32,000 nucleotides of DNA, from positions 2,520,001 to 2,552,000 of the forward strand of contig CP178758.1 in NCBI GenBank assembly GCA_047651235.1. Direction: 5' to 3'. Under the pieces are notes generated by a model. It saw nothing but the letters and a program-made list of their open reading frames with translations, was not told where the DNA came from and did not search any database. The translations under genes were made by a program, and so were the position numbers. The DNA comes from Candidatus Electrothrix yaqonensis (GTDB taxonomy: Bacteria; Desulfobacterota; Desulfobulbia; Desulfobulbales; Desulfobulbaceae). This document shows, piece by piece, positions 676 to 23,784 of this stretch. Within the stretch, counting starts at the first letter, position 1; each line of letters begins with the position of its first letter.

Positions 676-2174
676 ATAAGCAACCCCAAACTCCCCAATT
701 CCTTGCCGCCGTTGATCTCGGCTCCAACAGCTTCCACATGGTTGTTGCCCGCATTGAAGACGGGCATATCCACATCCTGGACAAGCTGAAAGAGATGGTG
801 CGTCTCGGTGCCGGACTGGATAAGCGCGGTCGGCTTTCCGCAGAAGCCCGCCAGTGCGCCCTTGCCTGTCTGCGCCGTTTCGGCGAGCGGGTGCGGAATT
901 TTCCTGCCGGGACGGTAGCCGCTGTGGGCACGAAAACGCTGCGGCAGGCTAAGAAATCCCGGCGTTTTGTAGAGCAGGCCGGGCAGGCTCTGGGCCATCC
1001 GATTGCCGTCATCGGCGGGAAAGAGGAAGCCCGCCTGGTGTATCTGGGCGTTTCCCATTCCCTGGCAGCTGCGGGCGGCAGGCGCTTTGTCATGGATATC
1101 GGCGGCGGCAGTACTGAGCTGATTATCGGAGAAGATTTTGAGCCGCTGCACCTGCACAGCCTGAATATGGGCTGTGTCAGCATGAGCCGTCAGTGCTTCC
1201 GCAACGGCAGCCTGAACCAGAAAAACTGGAAAAAGGCTTCCATTGCAGCTCACCTGGAACTGCGTCCGGTGCGGTATGCGTTTCAACAGGCAGGCTGGGA
1301 TTCCGCCACCGGGGCCTCCGGTACGATCAAGGCTGTGGGCAGCGTTGTGCAGGCGCTCGGCCTTGCGCCTTACACCATCACCCTGGACAGTCTGGACAGG
1401 ATACGCAAACTGATGACCGCTGCCGGACACCTGGACAATCTTGATCTGCCCGGCCTGAAAACAGAGCGCAAGCCTGTTTTTGCCGGAGGACTGGCTGTCC
1501 TTATTGCCGTGTTTGAGGCTCTGAAAATCGAGAGCATGCAGATCTCCGACGGGGCTTTGCGGGAAGGGCTGCTCTATGAACGACTGGGCCGCATCAGAAG
1601 CGAGGATACCCGGTTAACGACTGTTGCCGGTGTACAGCAACGCTTCCAGCTCAGCCGCCGACATGCTGATCGGGTGACCGAAACAGCGCGTCGGCTCTTT
1701 GCTGCCTGTGAAGCAGCATGGAATTTGGCTCCAGAAGATGCTGAACTGCTCTACTGGGCAGGCAGTCTGCATGAGATCGGCCTTGCGGTTTCTCTGAGCG
1801 GATACCAGAAACACGGTGCCTATCTCCTGGACCACGCTGATCTGCCCGGATTTTCTTTTGCCGAGCAGGAGCAGATGAGCGTGCTGGTCCGTTGCCATCG
1901 CAAGAAGCTGTCGAAAAGTCTGTTCAGAAAAATCCCCGCTGAACGGCGGCAGACTGTCCTGCGGCTTGCGGTCCTGCTGCGCCTTGCTGCGCTGCTGCAT
2001 CGTTCCCGTAAAGACGAGACAGCGGTCATTGAGGATGTTATTGCCAAGGGAGAGAGCTTGTCCCTTCACTTTGCCGAGGGTGAGCTGGACAGGCATCCCC
2101 TCCAGCTTGCCAGCCTGAAACAGGAGGCCGGGTATGTAAAACAGATCGGGTTTACACTCAGGTTTTCTTCGTGA
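672..2174 (+). CDS. ppx: exopolyphosphatase / guanosine pentaphosphate phosphohydrolase (Ppx/GppA family)
   Basis: 500 aa. The N-terminus AAVDLGSNSFHMVVARIEDG and DIGGGSTELI are the ASKHA phosphate-binding motifs typical of Ppx/GppA. The C-terminal half is HD-like (LHEIGLAVSLSGYQKHGAYLL). Confidence 0.9.
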   Translation: MNKQPQTPQFLAAVDLGSNSFHMVVARIEDGHIHILDKLKEMVRLGAGLDKRGRLSAEARQCALACLRRFGERVRNFPAGTVAAVGTKTLRQAKKSRRFVEQAGQALGHPIAVIGGKEEARLVYLGVSHSLAAAGGRRFVMDIGGGSTELIIGEDFEPLHLHSLNMGCVSMSRQCFRNGSLNQKNWKKASIAAHLELRPVRYAFQQAGWDSATGASGTIKAVGSVVQALGLAPYTITLDSLDRIRKLMTAAGHLDNLDLPGLKTERKPVFAGGLAVLIAVFEALKIESMQISDGALREGLLYERLGRIRSEDTRLTTVAGVQQRFQLSRRHADRVTETARRLFAACEAAWNLAPEDAELLYWAGSLHEIGLAVSLSGYQKHGAYLLDHADLPGFSFAEQEQMSVLVRCHRKKLSKSLFRKIPAERRQTVLRLAVLLRLAALLHRSRKDETAVIEDVIAKGESLSLHFAEGELDRHPLQLASLKQEAGYVKQIGFTLRFSS

Positions 2175-2545: not shown

Positions 2546-2842
2546 ATGTTTCTACTCGGAAATTTTATACTTGCGCTTGCCAAACTGATTAATGTCGCCT
2601 TTTCCGCCTATGTCTGGATTGTCATCGCCCGGGCTGTCATATCCTGGGTGAATCCTGATCCGTATAATCCTATTGTCCGCTTTCTGATTCAGGCCACTGA
2701 TCCGCTGCTTCGGAAAATACAGCGTTATATCCCGTCCATGGGAGGAATAGATCTGAGTCCCATGATTCTGATTCTGGCCATTGTCTTTCTGCAGAGCTTT
2801 ATTGTGCCGACTCTGACCCAGATCGGCATGAATCTGCGTTGA
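2546..2842 (+). CDS. yggT: YggT family membrane protein
   Basis: 98 aa with two hydrophobic segments and ARAVISWVNPDPYNPIVRFLIQATDPLLRKIQRYIP, which is typical of the YggT/Ycf19 family. Confidence 0.85.
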   Translation: MFLLGNFILALAKLINVAFSAYVWIVIARAVISWVNPDPYNPIVRFLIQATDPLLRKIQRYIPSMGGIDLSPMILILAIVFLQSFIVPTLTQIGMNLR

Positions 2843-2854
2843 ATCTTTGGACCG

Positions 2855-3151
2855 ATGTCGTATCTGCAGGTTCAGTCCGACGGCAGTCTCCTCCTCTCTC
2901 TGTATGTCCAGCCCCGATCTGCCCGCAATGAAATCGCCGGGCTGCATGGAGATGCCGTAAAACTGCGCCTTACTGCGCCGCCGGTGGACGGCAAGGCCAA
3001 CAAGGCGGTCATTACCTTTCTGGCAAAATGCTTCAAAATTCCTAAATCTGCTGTGCAGATCAGGAGCGGCCAGCAAAGTCGGATCAAAAAAATTCTGCTG
3101 AACAGCGTTGAAGAAGAGCGCGTCCGTTCCCTGCTGGAGCAAGAATTATGA
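2855..3151 (+). CDS. DUF167 (YggU-like) protein
   Basis: 98 aa. LYVQPRSARNEIAGLHGDAVKLRLTAPPVDGKANKAVITFLAK matches the DUF167 signature (PP.DGKAN). It sits next to yggT, as is common. Confidence 0.85.
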   Translation: MSYLQVQSDGSLLLSLYVQPRSARNEIAGLHGDAVKLRLTAPPVDGKANKAVITFLAKCFKIPKSAVQIRSGQQSRIKKILLNSVEEERVRSLLEQEL

Positions 3152-4596
3152 GAAGAAAACAGCGACGAGTGAAACGACTGAAAACTATTCTGGAGGTTTT
3201 TTCCGACGCGTGGGATCTTTATACACGCAGGGCCCTGTCTGTCCTGCTTGTCACTCTGCTGGCGCCCGTGATAACGGTGATTGTCCTGGCTGGCTGCGGA
3301 GCAGCAGCCTTTATCGGCCTGGGTGGAGAGCAGGCATTTACCGGTGATCTGCGGCAGATGCTGCTCAATCCGGCAGTTTTGGGGGCGGGAGCTGCGTTTA
3401 TTCTGCTGGCCGGACTGATGATTACTTGGTGCCAGACAGCGGTGCTGACTGTTGCCGTTGATGAAGAACGGGATATTTTAGGAGGGCTGGCAGCGGGCTG
3501 GAAATATGTCTTTTCTCTGCTCTGGATAGGGAGCCTTTATTTCGGCATCATCATGACCGGTATGCTGTTGATTGTTCCAGGTCTTGTTCTGGCCCTGTCC
3601 ATGTCCCTCTGTTTCTATATCATGATCGAGGAGGAAATTACCGGGATTGATACACTCATGGCCAGCCGTCTGTACATGCGGGGCCATTGGTGGAATACCC
3701 TGCTGAAATTCCTGCCGGTCTGGCTGCTCTCCCTGCTGATCGGCCTGATTCCTGTTGCCGGGCAGGTGCTTGCCTTTCTTTTCACCCCGTTTGTGCTGTT
3801 TTATGGCGTGGTTGTTTATCGTAACCTCAAAGAAGTCACAGGAGAGGTTGATCCAAGTGACTGCTGCAGGCCGCTGTGGGTGCTGATGGGCACTTTCGGT
3901 ATGCTGCTTCCTCTGCTCGCCTTTGTCGGTGCTGTTCTTGCATTCGGGCCTCGGCTCCAGGAAAAGCTGCCGCAGATACAGCACCAAGTCAATCAGATCG
4001 TGGGATCGGAGATATTTCCGCTGCAGACAGGTGGTGCAGGATTACCGTCTGTCCTGCAGCTTGCTTCAGTGGACGGCTTTCTGGTCTGGCGCGACCCGGT
4101 CAACGATACGCATAATCCTCTGCTGGATATCAGAGAGGTCTCGGCAAAAGGAGATGCAGGAGAACTGCAGCTCAGGGTACGGCTTGCCCGTCCTTTTGCT
4201 GACTATTTTGCTGCTGCCAAGGCCGGAAGGAGCGAGCCGCTGGTCAGCTTTTACCTTGATACAGATCAGGACCGTGCAACCGGCGGTTCTCCGTTTAGTA
4301 ACGGACAGGGCAGAAACGGGTATGATATGGATATCGAGGTGCAGTTACGTGCTCAGTCTGCTGAGCAGAACACGCCTGCGGGAGTGAATACAGGAATCTA
4401 CAGAGTTGACCGTCGGGAAAACAGGTCTTTCCAGGGCACACTGGATGACAGTGCAGTGAAAATTACCGGCGATACCTTGACCATACGTTTGCCGTACAGT
4501 CAGTTAAGTACCACCGGTAAGGGGGCTGTCCGGATCTGCTACCGGGAAACAGGGCAGCAGACTCCGGCAGAAGATAAACTGGTTCCGTTGAAGTAA
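3148..4596 (+). CDS. multi-pass membrane protein with a C-terminal soluble domain, function unknown
   Basis: 482 aa. ATGA overlap with the DUF167 gene. The first ~270 aa hold about 6 hydrophobic helices. The C-terminal ~200 aa are hydrophilic and look beta-rich. Confidence 0.7.
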   Translation: MRRKQRRVKRLKTILEVFSDAWDLYTRRALSVLLVTLLAPVITVIVLAGCGAAAFIGLGGEQAFTGDLRQMLLNPAVLGAGAAFILLAGLMITWCQTAVLTVAVDEERDILGGLAAGWKYVFSLLWIGSLYFGIIMTGMLLIVPGLVLALSMSLCFYIMIEEEITGIDTLMASRLYMRGHWWNTLLKFLPVWLLSLLIGLIPVAGQVLAFLFTPFVLFYGVVVYRNLKEVTGEVDPSDCCRPLWVLMGTFGMLLPLLAFVGAVLAFGPRLQEKLPQIQHQVNQIVGSEIFPLQTGGAGLPSVLQLASVDGFLVWRDPVNDTHNPLLDIREVSAKGDAGELQLRVRLARPFADYFAAAKAGRSEPLVSFYLDTDQDRATGGSPFSNGQGRNGYDMDIEVQLRAQSAEQNTPAGVNTGIYRVDRRENRSFQGTLDDSAVKITGDTLTIRLPYSQLSTTGKGAVRICYRETGQQTPAEDKLVPLK

Positions 4597-4602
4597 TCTT
4601 GT

Positions 4603-5001
4603 TCAGTCTTTCGGGACAACCGGATAATTGCTCATTTCCCATTCCTTCCAGCCTCCGTTGAGTGCGTAGACATTGCTAAAGCCTTTCTCCATGAGCATGC
4701 GTGCGACATAACCGCTGCTGCCCAGCCCTTCGCAGGCGCAATACAGGACCAGCGGGGTACTTTTATGAAAGTTTTCCGCCCAAGTCTCAAGCTGATCAAT
4801 AGGCAGGCGGATCGCTCCCGGAATTTTGCTGTTGCTGGAATCCCAGTCGTTGTCACTGCGGACATCCAGGATGGTGAATTCCTGGGTACCGAGTTCTGCT
4901 CTGAGCTCTTCTTTGCTGATGGTGGGGACGTCAGCAGCAAGGGCCGGAAGTGCAGCTGTGCAGAGAAAAACAGCAGCAACCAGCAATAAAATTTTTTTCA
5001 T
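4603..5001 (-). CDS. periplasmic single-domain rhodanese (sulfurtransferase), Cys form
   Basis: 132 aa. Signal peptide MKKILLLVAAVFLCTAALPALA. Active-site loop YCACEGLGSSGYVARMLMEKGF followed by LNGGWKEW, typical of GlpE/PspE-like rhodaneses. Confidence 0.85.
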   Translation of the reverse strand: MKKILLLVAAVFLCTAALPALAADVPTISKEELRAELGTQEFTILDVRSDNDWDSSNSKIPGAIRLPIDQLETWAENFHKSTPLVLYCACEGLGSSGYVARMLMEKGFSNVYALNGGWKEWEMSNYPVVPKD

Positions 5002-5450
5002 GACTTTTCCTCTTCTGTTGTACTTTTCCCGTCTTCAGCAGAACGGTTTACTTTTTTTACTTTTTTCTCCACCGGAAAATTCTTTTCTGTCCATTCCCGC
5101 CAGCCTCCTTTGAGAACATAGACCTCGGTGTACTCTTTTTCCATGAGCAGGCGTACCAAACTGGCACTGCTATGTTCATTCTTTCAGGAACAATAAACAA
5201 CAATGGTTCTGTCTTTCGGCAGATCGGCTGCCCATTTTTCCATAGTGGCCTGAGTTGCCCGGATTGCTCCGGGAATCTTTGTCGCAGCGGCCTGCCAGCC
5301 GCCTTCCGAGCGTGCATCCAGAATGGTGATGTCCTCAGAAGAAAGTTGCTCCTTAAGTTCGTCAGTACGCATAAACCGGATGTCGTCAGCAGCGACCGCC
5401 TGTGTCAGTCCGCTGAATAAAAAGATAATGAGCAGCAATATTCTGTTCAC
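4998..5450 (-). CDS. periplasmic rhodanese paralogue with in-frame UGA (probable selenocysteine) at the catalytic position
   Basis: GTG start at 5450 with an AAGGAG SD. Signal peptide MNRILLLIIFLFSGLTQAVA. The listed 88-aa ORF stops at TGA 5186..5184, but the same frame stays open for 61 more codons to TGA 5000..4998. Those codons read KNEHSSASLVRLLMEKEYTEVYVLKGGWREWTEKNFPVEKK..., the conserved rhodanese C-terminal half. The final stop overlaps the ATG of the downstream paralogue (ATGA). Confidence 0.6.
5146..5171 (-). promoter_or_regulatory. SECIS-like hairpin downstream of the in-frame UGA
   Basis: Minus-strand RNA: UGA, 12 nt, then AGCAG-UGCCA-[GUU]-UGGUA-(CGC bulge)-CUGCU. That is 10 bp in total with G and U in the apical loop, about 23 nt after the UGA. 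Folded by eye only. Confidence 0.45.
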
Positions 5451-5740
5451 TTTCTTTCTCCTTTTTTATTAATTGGAAAGATCTCACCGTAAAAAACGCC
5501 TCAGCCCTCTATTCCGGAGGGTAATAACGAGCCGCGTTTTTTTCGCATTCCTCAATAAATTGCCCTTACTGTACAGTACGTAACATAAAGTGTACAGTCT
5601 TTTTATCAGAGGAACCAATTCAAAAGATGGGGTGCGGAAAGGACATGCGCACGGATATTTAGTTTCCGCAGAAACTCAAATGATTATGAAGTGCTCACGG
5701 AAAACAGCGAGGCGATGATTCAGATTTATGATCAGCATTC

Positions 5741-5846
5741 TTATAACTGATGTTACGCACGCAAATAAAAGATCAGTAAGTTACGAGACACCCAAAGCGT
5801 AGAATCTGCCGATTTTGCGTTTCGGCTGCGTAACATCAGCTTATAA
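5741..5846. repeat. long imperfect inverted repeat / hairpin in non-coding DNA
   Basis: TTATAACTGATGTTACGCA (5741-5759) pairs with TGCGTAACATCAG(C)TTATAA (5827-5846), giving 19 bp with one bulged C. It is extended by CGCAAA/TTTGCG after an internal loop. Confidence 0.6.
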
Positions 5847-5975
5847 AAAGTAAGAAGACCGGCTCAGCAGGTTTTTAAAAACAGCTTCTTAGCAGGGCCT
5901 GTCAATACCGCATTCGTAACAATTTTTTCTTCATCCTCTTGTAATGATTCCCGATCCAAAGTAAGGCTTCACCGG

Positions 5976-6007
5976 CAACAACAGCTTCATTTTTTTTGTG
6001 TGAACAG
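5976..6007. repeat. left inverted repeat bounding the 6144-6470 ORF unit
   Basis: CAACAACAGCTTCATTTTTTTTGTGTGAACAG. The reverse complement of 6574-6604 is CAGCAACAGCTTAATTTTCTTGTGTGAACAG, about 28 of 32 positions identical. Confidence 0.7.
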
Positions 6008-6025
6008 GCCTTGGTATACAAAATC

Positions 6026-6146
6026 AAGGAGGTATAGCTGGAGCAGTATAAACTGAATACAGGATCAGCTATCTGAAAGGCGTGAAGGCAAAACTTATGC
6101 CTCTTGTGGGCATATTCAAATTATGTTGCTCCAGCTATAGTACATG
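6026..6146 (+). promoter_or_regulatory. split translation-initiation region: SD, 13-bp stem enclosing about 81 nt, then the ATG
   Basis: AAGGAGG at 6026-6032 is followed directly by TATAGCTGGAGCA (6033-6045). That pairs perfectly with TGCTCCAGCTATA (6127-6139), which is followed by GTAC and ATG (6144). There is no SD-like sequence next to the ATG itself. Confidence 0.45.
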
Positions 6147-6470
6147 GCTTGGAAATGGTATGATATTAAGAGTTACAAGGTGTCCTCAGGAGGAGGCCGA
6201 TATTACGGAGGCGTACAACTGTTCGGAGAAGGGTTCTATGGATTACTGACGTTCCATAAGGACGGGCCATTGCCTTCCGCATCAGCTCCTATGACGCACG
6301 GTCAACGATTTTACGGGCACTTGGACTTTCAGCAAATGCAGATGATTGTGGATCTGCTGCGCAACGAGGCTCCGGTGCGTTTCGGTTGGTATGAGAAAGA
6401 TCCCAATCTGTTTCACCTCATGACAGGACAGGAACCTGTCGGGGAAGGTGATGGAACCCTTACGGAATAA
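6144..6470 (+). CDS. hypothetical protein (orphan, 108 aa)
   Basis: Clean ORF with Gly/Tyr/Trp-rich composition and no motif recognised. It lies inside the IR-bounded unit. Confidence 0.5.
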   Translation: MAWKWYDIKSYKVSSGGGRYYGGVQLFGEGFYGLLTFHKDGPLPSASAPMTHGQRFYGHLDFQQMQMIVDLLRNEAPVRFGWYEKDPNLFHLMTGQEPVGEGDGTLTE

Positions 6471-20852: not shown

Positions 20853-21024
20853 ACCCCCCGCCTTTCAGGCGGGTAGCTTTCAGCCAGCAGTTGTTTTATA
20901 CTGACTGTTATGGAATACAGGAGCGGAAGTCATACCAAGTATAAAATAGAGTATCATTTTGTTTGGGTAACGAAGTATCGTTATCATATTCTACGTGGTG
21001 ATCTTGCCGAGCGGGTACGTGAGG
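20853..21024 (+). mobile_element. IS200/IS605-family left-end remnant (subterminal hairpin plus the first ~38 codons of tnpA)
   Basis: Hairpin CCCGCCtttcaGGCGGG (20857-20873) upstream of MEYRSGSHTKYKIEYHFVWVTKYRYHILRGDLAERV, the characteristic N-terminus of Y1 (HUH) IS200 transposases. The HUH and Tyr motifs are missing. Confidence 0.65.
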
Positions 21025-21356
21025 CAGCTTCCCTTAACACTGAGGTTGAGAAATTGAAAATTGGAGGATCGACAAATATGGCAGATGCCATCAGTCTGGC
21101 AACAAATAAACTCGCTGACAAAATGGGCGAGAAAATAATTTGTCTTGTGACCGATGGAATGCCGGATAATAGGCAGGCTGCGCTTGATGCGGCTGATCGG
21201 GCAAAAAGAGAACAAATTGACATTATGGCTATCGGTACAGATGATGCCGATAAAAATTTTCTCGAAGAAATTGTAACCCGCAAGGAGCTGTCAGTCAAAA
21301 TCGCAAGAGATCAGCTCGAACAAGGGATTGTCTCAATGGCCAAACTGTTGCCATGA
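20910..21356 (+). pseudogene. chimeric ORF: IS200 tnpA N-terminal fragment fused in frame to the C-terminal part of a vWA-domain protein
   Basis: After about residue 38 the sequence switches to KIGGSTNMADAISLA...IICLVTDGMPDN...IDIMAIGTDDAD. That is the distal half of a von Willebrand A fold. The DxSxS MIDAS start is absent. Confidence 0.6.
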
Positions 21357-21682: not shown

Positions 21683-22003
21683 TTATGAAGGAACGGCACG
21701 TACTTCAAAATTAATTTTGAATTTTTGCCGGAGAACCTTCAGGATCGCCGTCAGATTGTCCATAGTGGGATTGCCTTTGGCTGACAGCATTCTGTGAAGA
21801 CTCTTGCTGGGCTTTGTTGTTTCGTTCGCCAATGTTTCGAAACCTACTGTGGCATTTACCAAATCTCTAAGGATCAGTCTTGCAGTATCCGGTTCTCCGT
21901 TAAGAAATAAGGTAACAGCCTCGTCAAGTAAAGCGGCGGCAAATTCAGGTTCGCGTTCGGCCCGTTCATTAATTGTTTTTTTATAATCTCTGACTATCGG
22001 CAT
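21683..22003 (-). CDS. higA: HigA-family antitoxin (addiction module antidote, HTH)
   Basis: 106 aa. PEFAAALLDEAVTLFLNGEPDTARLILRDLVNATVGFETLA...SLHRMLSAKGNPTMDNLTAILKVL is typical of this family. Confidence 0.8.
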   Translation of the reverse strand: MPIVRDYKKTINERAEREPEFAAALLDEAVTLFLNGEPDTARLILRDLVNATVGFETLANETTKPSKSLHRMLSAKGNPTMDNLTAILKVLRQKFKINFEVRAVPS

Positions 22004-22006
22004 AGT

Positions 22007-22342
22007 TCACCTCTTTTTCTGACGATACGCCGTCATGCGCTTCTTGTACTCTTTGAAGAGATCATTAACCTTTTTAATATCGGATTGTTGGCTTTTTTTC
22101 ACCCCTCCTCCAAAAAGGATTATCAGATCATCTCCCCTTTGAGCCAGATAAATTCTGTATCCCGGCCCCCAATTGATACGGTACTCACCAATTCCACTGA
22201 ACCATTTTATTCCTGATGTATTCCCAAGTTCCAGCCGGGCCAAGGCCACAGTGACTTTAGCAGCCGCCTGACGATCAAGCTTATCAAACCATTTCTTAAA
22301 CGAATTTGAGCCGTCTTCTCGAATATACTCTTCAATCTTCAT
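22007..22342 (-). CDS. higB: HigB-type toxin (addiction module killer protein, RelE/ParE superfamily)
   Basis: 111 aa. FKKWFDKLDRQAAAKVTVALARLELGN...GIGEYRINWGPGYRIYLAQRGDDLIILFGGGVKKSQQSDI is typical. It sits upstream of higA with a 3-nt gap. Confidence 0.8.
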   Translation of the reverse strand: MKIEEYIREDGSNSFKKWFDKLDRQAAAKVTVALARLELGNTSGIKWFSGIGEYRINWGPGYRIYLAQRGDDLIILFGGGVKKSQQSDIKKVNDLFKEYKKRMTAYRQKKR

Positions 22343-22896: not shown

Positions 22897-23556
22897 TTAA
22901 ATGAACTCAATGCTGACCGGGCAATGGTCGGAGCCGAGGATGTCGTCATGAATGTCTGCGGCCAGAACCCGGTCCCGGCTGGCAGGATGGACCAGAAAAT
23001 AATCAATACGCCAGCCGATATTCTTTGCCCGCGCATTGAAGCGGTAACTCCACCAGGTGTACTGGTCCGGTTCCTGATTGAACAGGCGGAAGGTATCCAC
23101 ATAGCCTGCTCCGGTCACCTCGTCCATCCAGGCCCGTTCTTCGGGTGAAAAGCCGGGATTCTTCACATTGGCCTTGGGATTGGCAAGATCGATTTCTTTA
23201 TGGGCCACATTCAGGTCGCCGCAGAGCACCACAGATTTTTCCGTTGCCAGCCGGTCCATATACCGGAGGATTTCCCGGTTGAAATCCTGCTTGAACTGCA
23301 GCCGTTTTAGGTCGTGCTGGGCATTGGGAAAATAAGCGGTGATAAAATAAAAATCCGCAAACTCCAAGGTCAGTACCCGGCCTTCGGCATCAAATGCTTC
23401 TTTTCCCAGACCATAGATCACATTGAGGGGCGTCTGCCTGCTGAACACGCCTGTCCCGGAATAGCCTTTCTTCTGCGCCGGATACCAATAGGCGGTATAA
23501 CCGGGAACCTGTCTGACTTCATTCGGCAGCTGATCCGGCATGGCCTTGATCTCCAA
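22897..23556 (-). pseudogene. xth: exodeoxyribonuclease III (Xth/ExoIII family), N-terminally truncated by about 30 aa
   Basis: 219 aa, matching ExoIII from the LQE(I/T)K motif onward (LLEIKAMPDQLP ... GSDHCPVSIEFI). The frame opens immediately after the stop of the upstream gene, so the WNVNG-type N-terminal strand is absent. Only a TTG start is available. Confidence 0.7.
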
Positions 23557-23571
23557 GAGCTGACTTGCTCG

Positions 23572-23784
23572 TCAGGCCTTGCTCCCCTCGCTGTCTTTTA
23601 CGGCATCAAACAGTTCTTTCAGGTCAGGATCGCCCAGCCATTTTTTTCTTTCTTTTGTGTAATCTCCCCAGCCGGTTTCAGATTGCTGTAAGAATCTGAC
23701 CATTCCGACTGCTCCAAGTTTCTGAGCAAGAGCTGTTATACCGATCCGTCTCACCTGTTCAAGAGTCATTGCTTGGGTGCTCAT
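23572..23784 (-). CDS. small antitoxin-like protein (family not named)
   Basis: 70 aa. LEQVRRIGITALAQKLGAVGMVRFLQQSETGWGDYTKERKKWL resembles small proteins I recall next to PIN toxins. This is unverified. Confidence 0.5.
   Translation of the reverse strand: MSTQAMTLEQVRRIGITALAQKLGAVGMVRFLQQSETGWGDYTKERKKWLGDPDLKELFDAVKDSEGSKA

Follow-up and report, generated by a model that had tools for sequence, protein, structure and literature searches.

Does an internal TGA end a rhodanese gene of Candidatus Electrothrix yaqonensis, or is it translated? The question is raised by a locus in the 32,000-nucleotide stretch of DNA analysed here (hereafter the window: contig CP178758.1 of assembly GCA_047651235.1, positions 2,520,001 to 2,552,000), where a minus-strand frame encoding the first half of a rhodanese domain reaches a TGA and continues beyond it with the second half. 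A preliminary description of the window had proposed that this codon specifies selenocysteine (Sec), and that the gene stands in tandem with a paralogue that has cysteine in its place. The comparisons reported below make it very probable that the UGA at 5186..5184 is decoded as selenocysteine in a 150-residue rhodanese of the NCBIfam family NF041203. They also bear, with less certainty, on the chemistry of the protein and on the partnership between the two copies.

The TGA codon and the frame around it

The frame opens with GTG at 5450 and runs for 88 codons before TGA 5186..5184 at codon 89; 61 further in-frame codons separate this TGA from the next one at 5000..4998, giving a read-through product of 150 residues. 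These coordinates, which go back to the preliminary description, are all correct. A single match to the Pfam family Rhodanese (PF00581) spans the internal TGA, covering residues 29-122 of the read-through product (E 3.6e-17), which bears out the earlier view of the continuation as the C-terminal half of a rhodanese. The adjoining Cys paralogue also matches PF00581 (E 8.4e-17), and in a MAFFT alignment of the two copies the TGA falls on the second Cys of the paralogue's YCAC, exactly where it had been placed before. The features on which the argument turns are:

4998..5450, minus strand: complete Sec-rhodanese gene of 150 codons including the probable UGA-Sec codon 89, plus the stop; matches Pfam Rhodanese and NF041203
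5184..5186, minus strand: UGA very probably read as selenocysteine, residue 89; TGA in 82/83 homologues, and Cys in this column in the Cys clade
5190..5192, minus strand: codon TGT of Cys87, the C of the C-x-U motif; Cys invariant in 83 Sec-type genes and 25 Cys-type proteins
4998..5001, minus strand: ATGA overlap between the stop of the Sec gene and the start of the Cys paralogue, pointing to translational coupling
4603..5001, minus strand: Cys paralogue of 132 residues with the motif LYCAC, Cys88 at 4740..4738 and Cys90 at 4734..4732; matches NF041203, and its AlphaFold2 model matches single-domain rhodaneses in Foldseek

Relatives of the Sec gene were collected at two distances. A search of 5.8 billion predicted proteins for close relatives found the window's own stub and three others (L001-L003), and a scan of one genome per GTDB species gave 262 related stretches, the best 80 of which (L004-L083) are the distant loci referred to throughout; these 80 together with the window and two of the close relatives form an 83-gene set. 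The three close relatives (81-86% amino-acid identity) are likewise stubs of 88 residues, with TGA at the equivalent codon in all of them. It had been predicted that gene callers would yield an 88-residue truncated product, and all four of these proteins (P0001-P0004) are indeed called at that length. L001 and L003 keep an open, conserved frame past the TGA, the only length changes being two 9-nt indels in the Lys/Glu-rich C-terminal tail (20 residues in the window copy); both also retain the downstream hairpin described below and the ATGA junction with the Cys paralogue, which upholds the earlier reading of the tandem as joined by this overlap. The L002 contig stops 20 nt past the TGA. A search of the close homologues for truncation or frameshifts downstream of the TGA found codon and frame retained, with indels only in multiples of three.

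The same holds at much greater distance. An in-frame stop stands at the aligned codon in 80/80 distant loci (36-50% identity to the query) and is TGA in 79 of them, while across the 83-gene set the codon is TGA in 82/83 and TAA in 1/83 (L050). The consensus of the distant loci around this codon reads L-Y-C-A-*-P-N-E-G-T-S-A, and the C-terminal half past the stop is well conserved in them, including GGW.EW...P and ending ALKGGWREW...YPVE.K. They derive from the Desulfobulbales (including Candidatus Electrothrix, Desulfocapsa and Desulfopila), Desulfobacterales, Syntrophobacterales, Geobacterales/Desulfuromonadales and Nitrospirota/Thermodesulfovibrionales, and one of them (L007) is a locus of the Olavius Delta 1 symbiont. 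In the homologues the column in question is thus UGA in all but one of the Sec-type genes and Cys in the 25 Cys-type proteins. Two metagenome scans for further members of the subclade with the window's VYCSU motif returned none.

Two of the distant loci depart from this pattern. L050 has TAA at the Sec codon (3274-3276 of that locus), and L026 has an extra in-frame TAA about 30 codons before the Sec codon, inside the motif K-I-x-G-A; each is either a dead copy or an assembly error of a metagenome-assembled genome.

A TGA fixed at one codon across phyla, with protein-level constraint after it, argues for recoding and not truncation. The most conservative alternative is that the TGA is a real stop, the product an 88-residue fragment of a truncated or decaying rhodanese, and the downstream frame a remnant. 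Gene callers do give exactly this product, and the TAA codons of L050 and L026 indicate that some copies may be dead or mis-assembled. Against it stand the retention of TGA in 82/83 genes over five orders, a conserved C-terminal half free of frameshifts and with only 3n indels, and the fact that the 88-residue fragment would be without half of the rhodanese fold; moreover, covariation in the RNA directly 3' of the codon would have no reason under plain truncation. We consider a real stop very improbable.

The hairpin downstream of the UGA

Bacterial selenocysteine insertion sequence (SECIS) elements are stem-loops of the mRNA, and the preliminary description had drawn a 10-bp bulged hairpin at 5171..5146, 12 nt past the UGA. 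This hairpin is reproduced as the minimum free energy (MFE) fold, at -9.1 kcal/mol, but conservation in the family is confined to the upper 6 bp. We thus distinguish two features:

5153..5167, minus strand: conserved core of the SECIS-type hairpin, with a 6-bp stem GUGCCA/UGGUAC (5167..5162 paired with 5158..5153) and the apical loop GUU (5161..5159), the stem beginning 16 nt after the UGA; identified by covariation, codon choice and MFE
5146..5171, minus strand: extended, lineage-specific lower stem (the 10-bp version), seen in the minimum-energy fold, its lower pairs not conserved across the family

In an ungapped alignment of the 83 genes over the first 45 nt counted from the UGA, the two arms of the core occupy columns 20-25 and 29-34. 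Standard pairs fill 93.4% of the cells; shifting the 3' arm by 1-3 columns lowers this to 25-50%. The covariation score lies above those of all 500 shuffles, and the inner four pairs are independently predicted by RNAalifold. The column pair 21-33 is the most instructive: among the 81 distinct sequences it is U-A in 60, C-G in 16 and U-G in 5, with no mismatch (0). A Ser codon ends in column 21 and an Ala codon in column 33, and the covariation hence falls on synonymous sites: AGC goes with GCG 15:0, and AGT with GCG versus GCA 5:60 (Fisher p 2e-12, uncorrected for phylogeny). Codon choice points the same way. The Ala codon of the hairpin is never GCC or GCT, though GCC accounts for 49% of the Ala codons elsewhere in those genes, and the Ser codon is always AGY, a class that makes up 43% of the Ser codons elsewhere in them. 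Covariation and codon choice at synonymous sites together indicate selection on the RNA, beyond that on the protein.

The hairpin, for which the preliminary description had recommended a bacterial SECIS predictor, also falls within the published constraints for bacterial SECIS (bSECIS) elements. In the bSECIS model the loop has 3-9 nt, the stem 4-16 bp, the UGA-to-loop distance is 16-37 nt and the MFE at most -7.5 kcal/mol; one of the two leading loop bases is a G, and the base after it is usually G or U (PMC13188914). The window hairpin has a 3-nt loop GUU, a 6-bp upper stem and a loop 22 nt from the UGA, and its MFE is -8.0 kcal/mol over 21 nt and -9.1 kcal/mol over 30 nt; the threshold of -7.5 is reached by 70/83 family members. 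By analogy with E. coli fdhF, SelB carrying Sec-tRNA(Sec) would bind this hairpin.

Several points weigh against this reading of the locus. When folded alone, the 71-nt region is no more stable than its shuffles (z -0.80), and the case for a SECIS element consequently rests on the comparison between genes and not on single-sequence energy. The ratio of nonsynonymous to synonymous substitution rates past the TGA, computed for the three close relatives, is 0.33-0.72 from 8-12 substitutions, which is weak when taken alone. Neither selA, selB and selD nor a tRNA-Sec gene was found within the 32-kb window by tRNA-Sec scan, Rfam scan or annotation. The window's VYCSU-KNEHSS departs from the family motif LYCAU-PNEGTS; the canonical catalytic site is assigned to Cys87 or to Sec89 depending on the alignment; and the family is listed among predicted selenoproteins of unclear function (PMC9312934). 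As regards the machinery, every relative that extends past the TGA has kept this codon, the frame and the hairpin, which argues strongly that the machinery is present.

A further alternative is that the UGA is read through without Sec, either under a variant genetic code or by near-cognate or suppressor insertion of Trp, Cys or Gly. TGA terminates other genes of the window, namely Ppx/GppA (2172..2174), YggT (2840..2842) and both rhodanese genes, and a variant code is thereby ruled out. The remaining forms of this alternative have to contend with the alignment of the UGA with the invariant Cys of the Cys clade, a classical Sec/Cys pair, with a SECIS-type hairpin that has a G-U loop at canonical distance, and with the curation of the family as a selenoprotein; the alternative as a whole is, if anything, still more remote than a real stop. 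A six-frame scan of the window for other TGA-interrupted open reading frames (ORFs) gave no second selenoprotein candidate, its hits being antisense frames or adjacent genes that share a frame.

Family, paralogues and active site

Judged by its model score, the Sec rhodanese of the window belongs to NF041203, 'rhodanese_LYCAU', an already known family whose model is of type equivalog and labelled 'rhodanese-related (seleno)protein'. Against the equivalog cut-off of 115 bits, the Sec copy scores 153.3 (with U entered as C), the Cys copy 143.9 and a typical member (L004) 183.7; one Cys-type homologue (P0015) carries the NCBI name 'rhodanese-related (seleno)protein'. The window has the C-x-U motif with UGA for the U, and V and S stand where the motif has L and A. 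The prediction of the LYCAU family is credited to Zhang & Gladyshev 2005, Bioinformatics 21:2580 (PMC13188914), and a 2022 review names it 'COG0607 form 2 (CxU)' (PMC9312934). That Sec rhodaneses had turned up in earlier selenoproteome surveys, as the preliminary description stated, is borne out by the literature: Sec-containing rhodanese-related sulfurtransferases were counted in the selenoproteomes of the Sargasso Sea and of the Olavius symbionts (PMC1088965, PMC1976440). In the latter work a UxU variant of a rhodanese-related selenoprotein family was reported, in which a second Sec has evolved (PMC1976440); if this is the same as the CxU family, the first motif position also carries a redox-active residue.

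The Cys paralogue has 25 full-length relatives (51-93% identity), the named sources of which are mostly Candidatus Electrothrix; L-Y-C-[AS]-C is found in all 25, with both Cys invariant. None of the 80 distant loci has a second copy within +/-3 kb of the gene, and the Sec+Cys tandem occurs only in the window, L001 and L003. Coupled to the Sec gene through the ATGA overlap, the Cys paralogue (LYCAC) of the window should be translated only by ribosomes that have passed the UGA, or else from its own, weaker ribosome-binding site. The distant Sec proteins show at most 52% identity to the window's Cys copy and at most 50% to its Sec copy; since they are equally near to both copies, which are themselves 41% identical to each other, the duplication is old and the Sec copy the more diverged. 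In a neighbour-joining tree, one Cys-type protein (P0030, LYCACPQEATS) groups with Electrothrix Sec forms, outside the main Cys clade, which suggests more than one exchange between Sec and Cys; this tree is rough, being rooted on the long branch of a distant GlpE outgroup, and was used only for the multiple origins of the Cys forms. As a separate observation, cable bacteria have a Sec-type copy (VIYCA-UGA-NNEGSSA) along with a Cys-type copy elsewhere in the genome (LYCACEGLGSSG), as seen in L009, L025, L065 and the proteins P0009-P0026.

Two further features of the Sec gene concern its translation and the destination of its product:

5458..5462, minus strand: Shine-Dalgarno sequence AGGAG, 7 nt ahead of the GTG start, read directly from the sequence
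5391..5450, minus strand: putative signal peptide (VNRILLLIIFLFSGLTQAVA, then ADD), recognized by inspection, with N-terminal hydrophobic segments also in those homologues whose match reaches the N-terminus

The start codon, GTG in the window, is ATG at the equivalent position in L001 and L002. Both copies had been described as having signal peptides: the expected elements, a basic N-terminus, a hydrophobic core and an A-x-A site, can be made out by eye in the two window rhodaneses, and residues 1-21 of the paralogue are modelled with a predicted local distance difference test (pLDDT) score below 50. The assignment is thus one made by inspection.

A related claim was that the Sec occupies the position of the catalytic Cys, which in rhodaneses opens the active-site loop of six residues. 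Foldseek places the AlphaFold2 model of the paralogue (overall pLDDT 85) in the single-domain rhodanese fold, its top matches being rhodanese domains throughout, including 3tp9, 6mxv, Alr3790, 1gmx and 1qxn. Ungapped HMMER alignments to both domains of 6mxv support the claim, putting residue 89 on the Cys of their canonical active-site loops, C-G-G-G-F-R-S and C-G-S-G-F-R-S, whereas strand-anchored alignments (6h98; MAFFT with GlpE) favour Cys87, which they put on the canonical Cys at the cost of a 2-residue gap. The segment from strand to helix is two residues longer in the family than in GlpE, and the model (strand 84-87 and helix from 94, by DSSP) fits both registers. From residue 89 to the G/aromatic pair the distance is 17, equal to the spacing of Cys65 in GlpE. 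From these alignments it is probable that Sec89 is at the catalytic position, and we conclude that the active-site loop or its mouth holds both Sec89 and Cys87, two residues apart.

What might a protein with such a site do? With moderate confidence we propose a periplasmic sulfane-sulfur transferase with a Sec nucleophile and a vicinal Cys as relay or resolving residue, with which reductase chemistry may be combined. The Sec-rhodanese would be exported by means of its N-terminal signal peptide, as predicted by inspection. In the periplasm Sec89 would act as the nucleophile of the loop U-K-N-E-H-S and take sulfane sulfur from polysulfide, persulfide or thiosulfate, while the invariant Cys87, two residues upstream, would serve as the relay or resolving residue and could close a selenenylsulfide.

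The main rival to the transferase is a selenenylsulfide-based reductase: the selenoprotein would be a thiol/selenol oxidoreductase, in which a C-x-U selenenylsulfide cycle, recharged by a membrane electron donor, reduces polysulfide, persulfides, selenite or an oxidised partner. It would account for the invariance of Cys87 and Sec89 (Cys90 in the paralogue) in every member, as single-Cys rhodaneses need no second residue. It also agrees with the acidic character of the active-site loop (N-E), as against the cationic loop of thiosulfate-binding rhodaneses, and with the existence of TsoB, a rhodanese/DsbD-fusion selenoprotein with a weakly similar rhodanese part, whose model matches the window proteins at E 9e-10 and 37 bits against a cut-off of 805 (NF045694). 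Sec, furthermore, is typical of redox centres, and redox roles are expected for most predicted selenoproteins (PMC9312934). However, no thioredoxin-fold or DsbD-like partner is conserved beside the gene in the distant loci, and the fold and loop length are those of the sulfurtransferases. We regard a dedicated oxidoreductase as possible though rather unlikely, bearing in mind that the oxidoreductase and sulfur-carrier chemistries are not mutually exclusive.

Genomic context and known systems

In the window the Sec and Cys genes form a bicistronic unit that stands alone between a convergent gene for a 482-aa membrane protein and a gene-poor stretch of 700 nt. The wider surroundings contain yggT/yggU, ppx, an AraC regulator, a large sensor kinase, ppsA, nifU/nifS and the gene for pyruvate:ferredoxin oxidoreductase, none of which is informative. 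The distant loci offer more. In 27/80 of them the gene directly ahead, in the same orientation, encodes a polytopic membrane protein of about 420 residues and often shares 4 nt with the Sec-rhodanese gene (for example L006:1747-2982, L010:1763-3004, L022:1724-3004 and L081:1724-3004). The profile of this membrane protein reaches the transporter ApcT of the amino acid-polyamine-organocation (APC) superfamily (3gi8, E 3.2e-6), and one member matches Pfam AA_permease_2; on these profile matches we class it as a strongly divergent transporter of the APC superfamily. NCBIfam has no model for it, and no homologue of it was found within the window. Other recurrent neighbours are present at 9 loci or fewer: glucokinase, cyclophilin, and a DedA-like/pyridine-nucleotide-disulfide oxidoreductase fusion (the fusion being recognized by inspection).

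These arrangements admit two more speculative readings, which we hold to be unlikely. In one, the Sec and Cys proteins would be an obligate pair, for example a heterodimer or a two-step periplasmic relay, and not a backup for selenium starvation; in the other, the Sec-rhodanese of the family at large would work with the upstream APC permease as a system new to the literature, capturing a sulfur or selenium species in the periplasm and importing it. For the pair, the overlap of the Cys-copy start with the Sec-gene stop would tie its stoichiometry to UGA decoding.

The convergent 482-aa protein of the window (3148-4596, plus strand) carries some five hydrophobic segments towards its N-terminus, whereas its C-terminal half is soluble. 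It matches no Pfam family and, among NCBIfam models, only the BPSS1780 family below threshold (17 bits); it was considered as a counterpart of the family's permease and proved unrelated on comparison. In a scan for promoters and terminators, no signal consistent with the operon rose above what shuffled sequence gives. Some 40 nt ahead of the Sec start (5491-5545, minus strand), an A-run is followed by a GC-rich stem and then a T-run (AAAAAACGCGGC...GCGTTTTTT), an arrangement that looks like a bidirectional terminator or a leader attenuator; the A-run, stem flanks and T-run recur in L001:1-60, and there is no Rfam match. Further upstream of the operon, at 5569-5600 (minus strand), there are two copies of ACTGTACA with the palindrome TGTACA, 14 nt apart, in a region that lies beyond the 5' end of L001; this repeat may be an operator. 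An Rfam scan of the window returned nothing, and a permissive one over 4500..6200 brought up only c-di-GMP-I-GGC at 17.5 against 59 bits, inside the coding region, which we took as a chance match.

Elsewhere in the window, three loci deserve a brief record. At 21683-22342 (minus strand), ORFs of 111 and 106 aa lie in one frame, split by TGA and one codon; from their sequences they look like a toxin-antitoxin pair (an addiction-module killer and a helix-turn-helix antitoxin) and not a selenoprotein. At 22897-23574 (minus strand), an exonuclease III-like ORF seems to be without its N-terminal part and, judged by eye, has ahead of it, in the same frame, a stretch of 76 unrelated codons closed by TGA; the gene may be disrupted or rearranged. 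At 20910-21356 (plus strand), an ORF starts with a motif of the IS200/IS605 TnpA type (HTKYKIEYHFVWVTKYRY) and continues with unrelated sequence; this is probably what remains of a transposase, joined to some other fragment.

Cable bacteria, Desulfurivibrio and related Desulfobulbales are reported to possess periplasmic rhodaneses without exception and to express them at high levels (PMC13047784), and roles in periplasmic sulfur trafficking have been proposed for these proteins (PMC13047784, PMC5516251). A full-text search of that survey of cable-bacteria periplasmic rhodaneses (PMC13047784) did not find the word 'selenoprotein', yet we see Sec copies in three Candidatus Electrothrix genomes (L009, L025, L065); hence Sec copies may have been missed or truncated there. 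Ordinary gene callers split or truncate such genes, and counts of the family's Sec members will be too low wherever no dedicated model, such as NF041203, is used. The selenoprotein is widespread and, it appears, periplasmic, occurring in sulfate reducers, sulfur disproportionators, relatives of Geobacter and the Nitrospirota; its invariant C-x-U pair and frequent permease neighbour provide concrete hypotheses of function. For a family already known, the residual value of the window locus lies in the correction of its annotation, in the coupled Sec/Cys tandem, and in a permease association that may aid the assignment of a function.

Comparison with characterized systems helps to place the locus. 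Like the SECIS of E. coli fdhF and the bSECIS elements in general, its hairpin is a stem-loop in the coding region just 3' of the UGA, with a small loop of G followed by U or G; it differs from the fdhF type in that only an upper stem of 5-6 bp is conserved in the family, with no conserved lower helix. The loop GGUCU, which is common in the NF041203 family, resembles that of fdhF.

GlpE and PspE of E. coli are thiosulfate sulfurtransferases of COG0607. Like the window protein they are single-domain rhodaneses, and GlpE has the same fold (1gmx in Foldseek at E 2.5e-7 with a TM score of 0.66; model NF001195 at E 3e-8, below its cut-off). Both GlpE and PspE differ in having Cys in place of Sec and no second Cys two residues upstream, whereas the window protein has an acidic loop and a strand-helix segment longer by two residues. 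PspE is periplasmic, which is also the location proposed for the window protein. Sud of Wolinella succinogenes (1qxn; E 5.4e-6, TM score 0.66) is a small exported rhodanese of an anaerobic, sulfur-respiring host, as the window protein is predicted to be. It is only 19% identical, has a single Cys and no Sec, and works with polysulfide reductase as its partner, while no psr genes adjoin the window genes; by analogy, Sud is a plausible functional counterpart as a periplasmic sulfane-sulfur carrier.

The other Sec rhodaneses are forms 1, 2 and 4 (UxxS, UxxG) and the TsoB rhodanese/DsbD fusion (UxxxxU), with form 1 represented by a protein of Geobacter sulfurreducens; they share with the window gene a rhodanese domain with Sec in the active-site loop and an occurrence in Deltaproteobacteria and their relatives (PMC13188914). 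They differ from it in Sec motif and architecture. The ExtH lipoprotein, the subject of separate study, may belong there too.

The closest counterparts, finally, are the other loci of NF041203 itself. The window gene agrees with these 80 in size, in its putative signal peptide and C-x-U / C-x-C motif, and in having UGA in the Sec column with a SECIS hairpin after it; it is unlike them in its VYCSU-KNEHSS sequence, its Lys/Glu-rich tail and its tandem with a Cys copy. It is, in short, an ordinary, slightly divergent member of the family, whose local peculiarities are the VYCSU variant and the coupled Sec/Cys tandem.

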